From positions 31,024 to 95,023 of the forward strand of contig JAFRAH010000001.1 of assembly GCA_017405525.1 (NCBI GenBank): a stretch of 64,000 bases of DNA, in the 5' to 3' direction. The notes under the pieces were generated by a model. That model was not told the origin of the DNA and ran no database searches. It was given only the letters and a program-made list of their open reading frames with translations. This DNA comes from Synergistaceae bacterium. Its GTDB lineage: Bacteria; Synergistota; Synergistia; Synergistales; Aminobacteriaceae. Both the position numbers and the translations under genes were made by a program. This document shows positions 60,524 through 63,036 of this stretch, in pieces; within the stretch, counting starts at the first letter, position 1; the number at the start of each line of letters is the position of its first letter.

Positions 60524-61087
60524 TTACTCTTCCCCTTTCGGTTTTGATGCCTTAGTGCCTGTACTTCCTGTTATGGGTGTGAGGAGCAGACGCATATATC
60601 TACCTTCCATTACGGGCTTTGACTCGCTCTTGCCGACATCCTCGCATTCGGCCATGACGCGGTTCAACACCTCTTCACCCCGGTCAAGGAATGACATCTC
60701 CCTGCCCCTGAAGAACACTGAGACCTTGACCCTGTGCCCCTTCTCAAGGAATGTCCTGACTGCCTTAGTCTTGAAGTCAAAATCATGGTCATCAATCTTC
60801 GGGCGCATCTTTATTTCCTTGAGTTCCTGGACTTTCTGCTTCTTCCTTGCGTCCTTCTCCTTTTTCTGGAGCTGGTACCTGTATTTCCCGTAGTCCATGA
60901 TCCTGCATACCGGGGGCTGTGCGAGCGGCGCAACCTCCACAAGGTCAAGGGACTGTTCCTGTGCCATTCGTATGGCTTCATTCGTGCTGGTGATTCCTAC
61001 TTTCACCCCGTTCTCATCGACCAGAAGAACCTGTGATGACGTTATCTCGTGGTTAATGCGGGGGGTATTCTCTTCGTTGCCGGGCAA
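60524..61087 (-). CDS. infC: translation initiation factor IF-3
   Basis: RINHEITSSQVLLVDENGVKVGI, PPVCRIMDYGKYRY and KEIKMRPKIDDHDFDFK. No ATG is available; the start is TTG 61087, or the ATT one codon upstream. Confidence 0.93.
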   Translation of the reverse strand: MPGNEENTPRINHEITSSQVLLVDENGVKVGITSTNEAIRMAQEQSLDLVEVAPLAQPPVCRIMDYGKYRYQLQKKEKDARKKQKVQELKEIKMRPKIDDHDFDFKTKAVRTFLEKGHRVKVSVFFRGREMSFLDRGEEVLNRVMAECEDVGKSESKPVMEGRYMRLLLTPITGSTGTKASKPKGEE

Positions 61088-61099
61088 ATATTCCTACGA

Positions 61100-61300
61100 T
61101 GCGAAAACATAATACGGTTACGTTTCCTTACTGTTTCAACGAGCTCGATACTCTGGACTTCCCAGTGTACCGCTTGTACGGCTCTCCTCAGTCATTACGG
61201 GGGCATCGTACACCCTTAGAGTTTAGGCTTTACTCAGCTAACCTCTCCAGATTCAAGGCGGCGTTAAAATCCCTGTCGATTACTTTTCCGCATTCGGGAC
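61100..61300 (-). ncRNA. expected location of the TnpB-associated omega (right-end) RNA scaffold; boundaries not determined
   Basis: Placed by analogy only, since omega RNAs span the tnpB 3' end plus the transposon right end. One 7-bp helix GGUGUAC/GUACACU is visible at 61148-61217. No fold was computed. Confidence 0.25.
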
Positions 61301-62354
61301 ACCTGAATATACGTTCTGACAGCTTCAGCTCTTTCCTCACATGGCCACAGCCTGAGCACTTCTTGGAGCTTGGGAAAAACCTGCCCGCAAATACAACCCT
61401 TATTCCTGCCTCTGATGCTTTGAGTTCTATCAGCCTCCGCAGCAAGTGCAGGTTCTGTTCCGCAACAGCCCTCGCAATATGTGAGTTCTTCATCATCCCC
61501 TGTATGTTCAAGTCCTCCATCACGATAGCTTGCGGCCTCATGCTTACTATTTCCCGCGCTGTCTGCCTGACGTATTCGTGCCTTTTGCGCCTTATTCTGC
61601 CGTAGATGTCCTGCACCCTGTATTTCTCCTTCAGGTAATTTTCCGAGCCCTTTTCCTTCCTCGACAAAATCCTCTGATGGTGCTTGAGCTGCCTGGTCAG
61701 CCTCTTCATCCTGTGGTTACGGTTGATGTTCCTGAACACACGCTTGCGTCCTCCACAGCTCACTACGGCCAGTGATTTCACCCCTACGTCTATTCCCATG
61801 TTCACACTCCGCAAAGTCATTCCCGGCTTTTCCGGCTGTACTTCTACCGCGCACTTCAGAAGCCACCTGCCACACTCGAACTTCACCCGTGCATTGTAGA
61901 ACTTCAAGCCCTCAAGGTTGCATTTAGCCTTGAACCTCACCCAGCCGATTTTTTCGAGATAGATGCGGTTATGCTCATCAGCCTTCACTTTCCCGGAACG
62001 TGTACAGAATGACGGCGTGCATTTTCCCTTAGCCTTGAACTTGGGCATTCCCCCGGTCTTCCCTGCCTTAAGCCGCCGGAGAAAATTCCTGTATGCCATG
62101 TTCAAATCTATCAGCGCATTGGCCTCGACTTGCCGGGAAACTTCTTTCAGCCACTTGAACCCTTCACTGTTTCGGAGCTCCGTGAACTTCCGCTTCAACT
62201 CGTACACACTAAGAAGCCTCTTGCTCTCTGCGTATGAGTCCCGCTGAACCTGCAGCCCCCAGTTCCACACCCAGCGCGCTGTGCCTGCATTCTGCCACAA
62301 TAACCCCACCTGAACCTTCAACGGAAACAAACGTATCACCATTGCCTTGTACAT
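61230..62354 (-). CDS. tnpB: RNA-guided endonuclease TnpB (IS200/IS605-family accessory protein)
   Basis: RuvC-I GIDVGVKSLAVV, RuvC-II IVMEDLNIQGM, zinc ribbon CSGCGH...FRCPECG and RuvC-III IDRDFNAALNL. ATG 62354 is preceded by an AAGGGGGG SD; the track's GTG 62363 is the alternative. Confidence 0.9.
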   Translation of the reverse strand: MYKAMVIRLFPLKVQVGLLWQNAGTARWVWNWGLQVQRDSYAESKRLLSVYELKRKFTELRNSEGFKWLKEVSRQVEANALIDLNMAYRNFLRRLKAGKTGGMPKFKAKGKCTPSFCTRSGKVKADEHNRIYLEKIGWVRFKAKCNLEGLKFYNARVKFECGRWLLKCAVEVQPEKPGMTLRSVNMGIDVGVKSLAVVSCGGRKRVFRNINRNHRMKRLTRQLKHHQRILSRKEKGSENYLKEKYRVQDIYGRIRRKRHEYVRQTAREIVSMRPQAIVMEDLNIQGMMKNSHIARAVAEQNLHLLRRLIELKASEAGIRVVFAGRFFPSSKKCSGCGHVRKELKLSERIFRCPECGKVIDRDFNAALNLERLAE

Positions 62355-62443
62355 CCGATGCACCCCCCTTCGGAAGGCACTGTATTATGTCCTCGCACCT
62401 CCTCCTTTCTGTTTGGATTTGTTCGCGGCTTTCGTTGTTGCGC

Positions 62444-62486
62444 AATAAAAATCAGGGCGGCCCGTTACCTCCAAGCCTGACCCTGA
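62444..62486 (-). terminator. hairpin plus U-run upstream of tnpB (left-end insulator-type terminator)
   Basis: The minus-strand RNA reads UCAGGGU..GGCUUG-loop-CGGGCC..GCCCUGA followed by UUUUUAUU. No minus-strand gene lies upstream for it to terminate. Confidence 0.45.
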
Positions 62487-62586
62487 CGATTATGTGCGTA
62501 TATAGGGTATTGGCTTCTTAGTTCCCCGCCAGCATCATGGCCAGACAGGAGAGCCTTAGTGCTGAAATATACCACAAGGCGGCTCA

Positions 62587-63036
62587 TTGCGCAATTTCCC
62601 GGCATCAAGGGGCTGGATTATTTGTGAAAATTATTTCTCGGTGCTAGAATTGCCGAAACAATCCCAAAATAACGAGAAGTTCTACACAACCAATAACGGA
62701 GGTTATTCATCAATAGCCAATACCGACGTATCACTGCTCAAAATCGGCAAAGATTCTTCCGACAGTTCCCTTACGCTGAAACTTGAAGGCAGGCTCGACT
62801 CAACGACAGCTCCAGTTCTTGAGGCTGAATTGAAGGGCGGGCTCAACGACATAACCGACTTGGTATTTGACTTGTCGGCTCTTGAGTTCATTTCTTCGGC
62901 GGGGCTTCGTGTCCTTCTCCTTGCACAGAAGGCCATGAAGAAACAGGGCACTATGATAATCAGGCACCCAATCCAAGATGTCATTAACGTCTTCGAGATT
63001 ACGGGCTTCAAGCGTATCTTCAACATCGAGAAATGA
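62587..63036 (+). CDS. STAS-domain protein (anti-sigma-factor antagonist, SpoIIAA/RsbV type)
   Basis: LTLKLEGRLDSTTAPVLEAEL...LVFDLSALEFISSAGLRVLLLAQK...VFEITGF, with the conserved Ser in ISSAGL. The domain begins near 62730. The start is uncertain (TTG 62587 is the only in-frame candidate; GGAGG at 62698). Confidence 0.7.
   Translation: MRNFPASRGWIICENYFSVLELPKQSQNNEKFYTTNNGGYSSIANTDVSLLKIGKDSSDSSLTLKLEGRLDSTTAPVLEAELKGGLNDITDLVFDLSALEFISSAGLRVLLLAQKAMKKQGTMIIRHPIQDVINVFEITGFKRIFNIEK

Follow-up and report, generated by a model that had tools for sequence, protein, structure and literature searches.

We analysed a 64,000-nt stretch (the window) of contig JAFRAH010000001.1 from a rumen Synergistaceae bacterium (GCA_017405525.1, here G000), a metagenome-assembled genome (MAG) of 43 contigs and 2.17 Mb that is 99.4% complete. 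On the reverse strand, a tnpB gene is encoded ahead of infC (IF3), which is followed on the same strand by rpmI, rplT, pheS, and pheT (Pfam IF3_N and IF3_C, L35, L20, and PheRS alpha and beta). The tnpB gene is carried by an element that we assign to the IS607 type (Table 1). This element parts the Shine-Dalgarno sequence of infC from its start codon, and tnpB now leads the infC operon as its first gene. The original prediction, made from the sequence of this DNA alone, had described a solo tnpB whose stop lies 142 nt from the infC start, and this gap (61230 to the TTG at 61087) is confirmed; the split between Shine-Dalgarno sequence and start codon was not part of it.

Insertion into the infC ribosome-binding site

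A match to infC was found in 43 genomes of the genus, and the upstream sequence was compared for 29 besides G000. We found tnpB before infC only in G000 and in one other species (G012, locus L023), where the tnpB is decayed. In about 28 relatives, the homologue of window positions 62576-62398 directly abuts infC, and the empty site reads, in order, hairpin, U-run, GCTGCGGCAGA, GAAAGGAGGAGGAATTATTG, and the TTG start of infC. This uninterrupted junction of leader, Shine-Dalgarno sequence, and infC establishes that the tnpB segment is a true insertion, as had been supposed. The insertion point lies after the first GGAGG of the tandem infC Shine-Dalgarno sequence (GGAGGAGG), 8 nt before TTG and downstream of promoter and leader.

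The infC gene is essential and tightly autoregulated, and in E. coli it has an AUU-type start codon. TTG (window 61085-61087) starts infC in every genome of the genus examined (loci L028-L056), and none of these infC loci has an in-frame ATT or ATG alternative start upstream of the TTG.

The sequence upstream of the element was aligned with that of 22 relatives lacking it (alignment A2). The conserved motif at its 5' side (Table 1) would act as the infC promoter. Behind it, RNAalifold detected covariation in a 5' stem, with both sides changed in 13 of the 23 sequences at pair 99/147 and in 9 at pair 104/143. The infC leader RNA is conserved genus-wide (window 62413-62594, reverse strand, and the infC upstream regions of L028-L056) and has the order extended -10 motif, 5' stem, terminator hairpin flanked by GCATA/TATGC, GCTGCGGCAGA, and Shine-Dalgarno sequence. 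It has no Rfam match at E values up to 1 and probably represents an as yet uncurated kind of attenuator that responds to L20 or IF3.

The hairpin and U-run ahead of tnpB had been read as having nothing to terminate and as fitting the left-end terminator of IS200-type elements. Both are real, but they are the conserved attenuator of the infC leader and lie outside the element; since they are also present before infC in element-free genomes, the IS200-type left-end model does not hold. Similarly, thrS is indeed not adjacent to infC, but this has no tie to the insertion, since element-free relatives have infC directly behind its own promoter-like motif and leader. An easy mis-annotation, a host attenuator mistaken for a transposon end, is thus corrected, and a conserved infC leader RNA is brought to light. 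A scan for consensus promoters and terminators detected no internal promoter in the element, but it was too strict and missed the native leader elements too.

Table 1. Features of the infC-linked element and its flanks in the window
Feature	Position	Strand	Basis
IS607-type tnpA-less TnpB element, short form, 1305 bp	61096..62400	-	flanks contiguous in relatives; ends homologous to nine other copies
tnpB coding sequence, 374 aa	61230..62354	-	open reading frame, Pfam, alignments, dN/dS
Hairpin sequestering the tnpB Shine-Dalgarno sequence	62363..62378	-	fold kept in five copies
Left inverted-repeat arm TGCGAGGACATAATACAGT	62379..62397	-	complementary to right arm
GAAAGGAGG, first half of native infC Shine-Dalgarno sequence, now left flank (TAM side), 1.3 kb from infC start	62401..62409	-	empty sites read GAAAGGAGGAGGAATTATTG(infC)
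RAGATH-18-like core of putative omega/reRNA scaffold	61128..61192	-	Rfam RF03064
3' flanking scaffold part: right arm (61118-61100) and terminus TCGT (61099-61096)	61096..61127	-	alignment A3
Guide-position 20 nt AGGAATATTTGCCCGGCAAC: residual AGGA Shine-Dalgarno sequence, TTG, infC codons 2-4	61076..61095	-	directly 3' of right end, family anatomy (PMC11061315)
infC (IF3), TTG start	60524..61087	-	Pfam; TTG kept in all relatives
Terminator-like hairpin and U-run, native infC leader attenuator	62444..62486	-	directly upstream of infC in about 28 element-free genomes; kept in A2
5' stem-loop of native infC leader RNA	62512..62555	-	RNAalifold consensus covariation
Native infC promoter-like motif: -35 TTGCGC (62594-62589), 17-nt spacer, extended -10 TGgTATATT (-10 at 62571-62566)	62566..62594	-	position kept in 22 element-free relatives (A2)

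Family assignment, ends, and guide-RNA scaffold

The tnpB open reading frame (ORF; 61230-62363, reverse strand) begins with GTG and, from the ATG at 62354, encodes an intact protein of 374 aa with the Pfam domains HTH_OrfB_IS605, OrfB_IS605, and Cas12f1-like_TNB (zinc ribbon). Its RuvC residues D189 (GIDVG), E280 (MEDLN), and D362 (DRDFNAA) and the zinc-ribbon residues C333, C336, C352, and C355 are invariant in an alignment of seven family members, and the triad and the four cysteines align with the equivalent motifs of solved TnpBs. The catalytically intact protein recognised in the original prediction is therefore confirmed. Its best solved relative is the TnpB of the IS607 element ISFba1 (8IAZ, E 2.6e-53), and the ISDra2 TnpB (8EXA/8H1J) matches at E 4.5e-48. 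The palindrome CCTTCCGAAGG over the Shine-Dalgarno sequence of tnpB, noticed before, is real as well; it is kept in every family copy as a CUUCC-GAAA-GGAGG hairpin that holds this Shine-Dalgarno sequence.

The family comprises ten independent loci (Table 2), whose TnpBs are 57-78% identical to the window copy; a metagenome scan contributed only four useful relatives. The element is single in G000, where other TnpB genes are at most 39% identical. Its ends, which other copies in the same genome had been expected to define, were instead set from the nine copies in other genomes and a metagenome.

Table 2. Copies of the element family and their host context
Copy	Genome	Context
window	G000	infC
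L023/L062	G012	infC, tnpB decayed
L009	G001	sepF to divIVA
L010	G008	epimerase to GGDEF
L011	G012	upstream of fliD
L013	G014	follows another IS607 element
L059	G045	host context not annotated
L060	G045	host context not annotated
L105	metagenome	host context not annotated
L012	G007	outgroup copy, 57% identity

Guide scaffolds of the RAGATH-18 type are specific to IS607 TnpBs and go with the target-adjacent motifs (TAMs) AGGAG or GAGGG (PMC11061315). The IS607 serine transposase needs a GG core and the scaffold finishes in UCGG (10.1101/2023.11.20.567912), while the ends are complementary AT-rich inverted repeats at targets ending in GG (PMC4227781). Many IS607 loci have a missing or broken tnpA (PMC11061315, PMC4227781). 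Based on its sequence, the window element is assigned to this type, tnpA-less and with a RAGATH-18-like scaffold. Among the TnpB paralogs in the genus, those of 39-41% identity have RAGATH-18 matches above the threshold (45-65 bits) and adjoin resolvase-family genes in other genomes, whereas the Y1-linked ones reach only 25-30% identity. Mobile copies of the family end in GCATCGG and abut a host GG, giving junctions of the form GG/element...CGG/host, with no target duplication beyond the shared GG; the window junctions are GG on the left and GT on the right.

The nearest TnpBs outside the genus (46-54% identity; L106-L108, all metagenomic) belong to IStrons, in which a group I intron lies directly upstream of tnpB (RF00028, 48-70 bits). 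These introns are at L106:81-408, L107:1012-1343, and L108:1-284, and the right end of the IStrons (TTTTTACGTTCGG) is homologous to that of the window element. No Intron_gpI match was detected in the window or in the sister copies, so that the element cannot splice itself out.

Among known systems, the ISFba1 TnpB (8IAZ; PMC11061315) resembles the window protein in size (387 vs 374 aa), domain order, and RuvC triad. As in ISFba1-type elements, the putative scaffold lies wholly downstream of the gene with a RAGATH-18-like core, the guide would be taken from the right-end boundary, and the TAM is G-rich and resembles a Shine-Dalgarno sequence (published as AGGAG/GAGGG; here flanks end in GGAGG or GAGG). 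Unlike them, the window element has a sub-threshold RAGATH-18 match (29 bits), a 3' flanking motif of about 32 nt instead of 64 nt, no TnpA, and an activity that is only predicted. Group B IStrons such as CboIStron (10.1101/2023.11.20.567912; PMC13521648; PMC4227781) have the GG core, the (U)CGG end, complementary AT-rich arms, and often no tnpA, but the window element is intron-less and sits between a Shine-Dalgarno sequence and a start codon, not within a coding sequence. ISBth15-type ORF-B-only elements (PMC4227781) share the solo tnpB, the GG-ending target, and complementary ends, but occur in a different host phylum, and no ribosome-binding-site insertion context was found described for them in the literature searched. 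The IS200/IS605 TnpB of ISDra2 (8EXA) is a homologous RNA-guided nuclease, but ISDra2 has an AT-rich TTGAT TAM, a Y1 transposase, a scaffold overlapping the coding sequence, and subterminal DNA hairpins.

As DNA, the 20-nt segments 62379-62398 (left) and 61118-61099 (right) agree at 16 of 20 positions; as RNA, when the arms are paired by hand with G-U allowed, 18 of their 19 positions form pairs. Every copy shows conservation or covariation of the arms, and those of L012 differ in sequence yet stay complementary. The arm duplex is more stable on the sense than on the antisense strand in eight of the ten intron-less copies, but this comparison fails to discriminate RNA-specific pairing because the right arm forms local pairs inside the guide-RNA scaffold as well. 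The 21 nt at 61118-61098 were considered as a carried guide aimed elsewhere and rejected, being the inverted repeat of the left arm and a conserved right end in other copies.

An omega-RNA had been proposed for the tnpB 3' region, and a covariance search places a RAGATH-18-like core there, directly after tnpB, with a window score below threshold (29.3 bits, E 0.019; gathering score of RF03064 44.9). Six sister copies have the match at the same position with 36-42 bits, likewise sub-threshold. The 142-nt spacer between tnpB and infC is thus taken up by the right end and the putative guide-RNA scaffold and not by an L20-type leader, which lies on the upstream side of tnpB. The right end reads GTATTATTATGTTTTTTGCATCGG in seven mobile main-clade copies and GTATTATGTTTTCGCATCGT in the window, and the scaffold ends in UCGG in the seven mobile sister copies, UCGU in the window, and UCGA in the infC-linked copy of G012. 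In the window, the terminal G-to-U change is offset by a U-to-A change in its pairing partner, in the UUCGAUGC segment past the tnpB stop, and scaffold helices are kept through compensatory AU-to-GC double changes. The UCGU terminus thus reads as decay of a family member and not as non-membership.

The copies differ at their left ends. In a sister clade of eight copies, the element begins with an additional outer left end (20-110 nt, TAATCGTATAGTAAGC), and an internal GAAAGGAGG stands between it and the arm, whereas in the window copy and L012 there is no outer left end and the arm directly abuts a host-type Shine-Dalgarno sequence. Since the window copy is sister to the eight-copy clade in the tree and L012 is the outgroup, the ancestral form was probably the short one, and a fossil target site may survive as the internal GGAGG of the sister clade. 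This internal GAAAGGAGG, 40-50 nt upstream of tnpB (L009-L013, L059, L060, and L105), has 5-6 nt downstream of it an ATG or GTG, which forms a bare start-stop (ATG TAA, GTG TAA, or ATG TGA) in five of eight copies and a short ORF overrunning the tnpB start in the others.

Mobility, selection, and placement of copies

The original prediction had noted that no tnpA lies next to tnpB. Inspection of both flanks confirmed this, and no Y1 transposase or serine recombinase was detected in the whole G000 assembly; the element is therefore non-autonomous. Mismatch of the two core dinucleotides abolished excision of a related element (10.1101/2023.11.20.567912). With a right core of GT in place of GG and no transposase in the assembly, the window copy is probably immobile and fixed in place.

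The ratio of nonsynonymous to synonymous substitution rates (dN/dS) against sister copies is 0.06-0.10 where it can be estimated, with dS saturated. The GC content of the element is 51.4%, against 52.2% for the genome, and most sister copies are 5-9 points below their flanks. Low dN/dS, host-like GC content, and the compensatory changes in the scaffold indicate that both TnpB and the predicted RNA scaffold have been under long purifying selection, although some or all of it may predate the infC insertion.

At six of the eight other loci, the corresponding empty site in G000 is contiguous and ends in GG (GGAGG at five, GAGG at one), with the start codon 7-14 nt downstream of it and the element pointing the same way as the host gene. 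At a seventh (L010), the orthologous G000 site has diverged. L013 (G014:C14, about 700-1010) is inserted exactly behind GTAACGG, the right end of a different IS607 element that had itself entered a Shine-Dalgarno/start-codon site; here, the right-end GG of one IS607 element served as the target for another. Five canonical IS607/RAGATH-18 paralogs in this genus stop 4-9 nt short of a start codon.

All 15 loci examined (15/15) lie between a Shine-Dalgarno sequence and a start codon, or immediately upstream of the start, and are co-oriented. By a rough ORF-based count, only about 10% of the GGAGG motifs in G000 are in such a position, so that the motif alone does not explain the placement. The simplest reading combines an AGGAG-like TAM and a GG target with the loss of disruptive intragenic insertions. 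Such nucleases are known to recognise AGGAG-like motifs, which offers a simple basis for the Shine-Dalgarno placement, and intragenic copies would be lost because the elements cannot splice, while intergenic GGAGG is mostly Shine-Dalgarno sequence. A literature search found no link between IS607 and Shine-Dalgarno sites, which is no proof of novelty; placement in ribosome-binding sites is possibly an under-appreciated consequence of the target motif of this family.

Probable consequences for infC and alternative explanations

As originally suggested, the guide would be set by the infC-proximal flank, since family anatomy puts it directly after the right end. The guide-position sequence has no other match in the G000 genome with at most two mismatches, and the self-copy is preceded by TCGT and has no G-rich TAM. 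The only natural targets would be unoccupied infC alleles, GGAGG followed by AGGAAT(T/A).TTGCCCGGC, as in related species, where variants of the empty allele have 1-2 mismatches to the guide.

We consider it probable, at roughly 85%, that the locus holds a non-autonomous IS607 element with an active-looking TnpB and guide RNA in the ribosome-binding site of infC. Its insertion site would have been set by the GG core of the serine recombinase together with an AGGAG-like TAM, and the transcription unit would now run from the leader through tnpB and the omega-RNA into infC-rpmI-rplT-pheST. With its promoter and leader now on the far side of the element, infC must be reached by transcription through tnpB, barring an internal promoter, which supports the earlier inference that transcription through the element feeds infC. 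Translation would start from the residual AGGA of the tandem Shine-Dalgarno sequence. The GGAGGAGG tandem leaves AGGA 5 nt before TTG, which probably accounts for the tolerance of the insertion by an essential gene and for the use of the first GG by both infC copies; at first, the GG of the newly inserted right end would even have restored a complete GGAGG. The 20-nt guide would cover the infC start, and the nuclease would cut only unoccupied infC alleles, a selfish role in retention and homing that follows the logic described for TnpB (PMC10055086).

The locus offers a base-resolved natural example of how an AGGAG-type TAM and a GG-core recombinase place an element in ribosome-binding sites. 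It raises the question of how a host gene stays translated with its Shine-Dalgarno sequence 1.3 kb away. It also raises the question whether maturation of a guide RNA that covers the gene's own initiation region competes with expression of that gene: since omega-RNA maturation would sever the infC initiation region, guide-RNA output and IF3 synthesis may compete. While the element belongs to a known family, its context in the infC ribosome-binding site is unusual and well resolved.

Several points weigh against this interpretation. The omega-RNA, the activity of TnpB, and read-through into infC are predictions, and the RAGATH-18 score of the window is below the Rfam gathering threshold. In a MAG of 43 contigs, a transposase could lie on unassembled repeats. 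Amelioration of GC content may have taken place in a donor and not in the present location. The exact left boundary is ambiguous given the outer left end and internal GAAAGGAGG of the sister clade: the GAAAGGAGG beside the left arm could be native or derived from the element, and an outer left end, if the window copy once had one, could since have been deleted between two GAAAGGAGG repeats. A left junction placed at 62398 by BLAST, with GGAGGAGG taken as native, was left ambiguous after the same motif was found inside sister elements. An intact short form is at least as likely as the loss of an outer end, because L012 shares this layout beside a host Shine-Dalgarno sequence and the window copy falls outside the outer-end clade in the tree.

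The infC copies of G000 and G012 could go back to a single old insertion, with later loss in most species. Their right junctions are at an identical position (GCATCG[T/A]AGGAAT) and both have lost the terminal G. However, an approximately unbiased (AU) test rejected a clade of the two infC copies (p 0.001), and the G012 copy groups with others at 99/99 support; as caveats, the base composition of the window copy is deviant, and the group to be tested was chosen with the tree already known. In addition, empty sites occur in more than 30 genomes whose IF3 sequences are closer, and the left ends of the two copies differ. A single old event followed by many losses is thus unlikely, and independent insertion or horizontal homing is favoured over it.

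In a wider and equally doubtful reading, IS607/RAGATH-18 TnpB elements would be dedicated residents of ribosome-binding sites, with arms that loop out the insert, and the infC copy would be coupled to the leader. TAM and GG core would then equal a Shine-Dalgarno sequence, homing would be directed into the 4-13 nt before a start codon in co-orientation, and guides would always be host initiation regions. In the intron-less lineage, the terminal arms would, as RNA, loop out the 1.3-kb insert and return the displaced (or carried) Shine-Dalgarno sequence to the host start, forming a split ribosome-binding site. The immobilised infC copy would couple production of TnpB and omega-RNA to the IF3/L20-regulated leader.

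The original prediction had left the choice between a domesticated and a non-autonomous element; the latter holds, with the catalytic residues intact, whereas we regard domestication as quite improbable. An immobilised nuclease-RNA complex would in that case have been recruited to regulate or guard the infC operon, either through omega-RNA maturation competing with IF3 synthesis or through an inverted-repeat stem that bridges the displaced Shine-Dalgarno sequence to the infC start. A single copy with a mutated right core in an assembly lacking a transposase would be consistent with this, as would an ORF and scaffold kept intact under purifying selection at host-like GC content. The copy is also embedded behind the infC attenuator, its guide overlaps the infC initiation region, and its left arm abuts GGAGG while the right arm is 12 nt from TTG. 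However, the intact RuvC triad is unlike known domesticated TldR-type regulators, which have lost these catalytic residues and aim their guide at a host promoter, and the guide position matches only the element's own flank, where the lack of a TAM means that no binding is expected. Moreover, the closest species lack the element, which is thus not conserved as a host function, the other infC-linked copy has a decayed tnpB, and purifying selection may predate immobilisation.

A solo TnpB of the IS200/IS605 type, with the upstream hairpin and U-run as its own left-end terminator and mobilised by a Y1 TnpA, is very improbable: although the Pfam domains are named after IS605, the ISDra2 TnpB is a good match, and a hairpin occludes the Shine-Dalgarno sequence, there is no Y1 TnpA, the supposed terminator is part of the host leader, the flanks are rich in G (GG) and not TTAC- or TTGAT-like, TnpB is closer to the resolvase-linked than to the Y1-linked proteins of the genus, and RAGATH-18 scaffolds are specific to IS607 TnpBs (PMC11061315).

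Elsewhere in G000, C22:37797-38942 (L003) encodes a canonical IS607-type TnpB of 39% identity, with a RAGATH-18 match of 56 bits and a right end, GTAACGG, 9 nt before an ATG. C23:80148-81211 (L004/L006) contains a broken third copy, and neither of these loci has a tnpA. In the window, a STAS-domain gene and a dCache sensor are encoded on the opposite strand upstream of tnpB.

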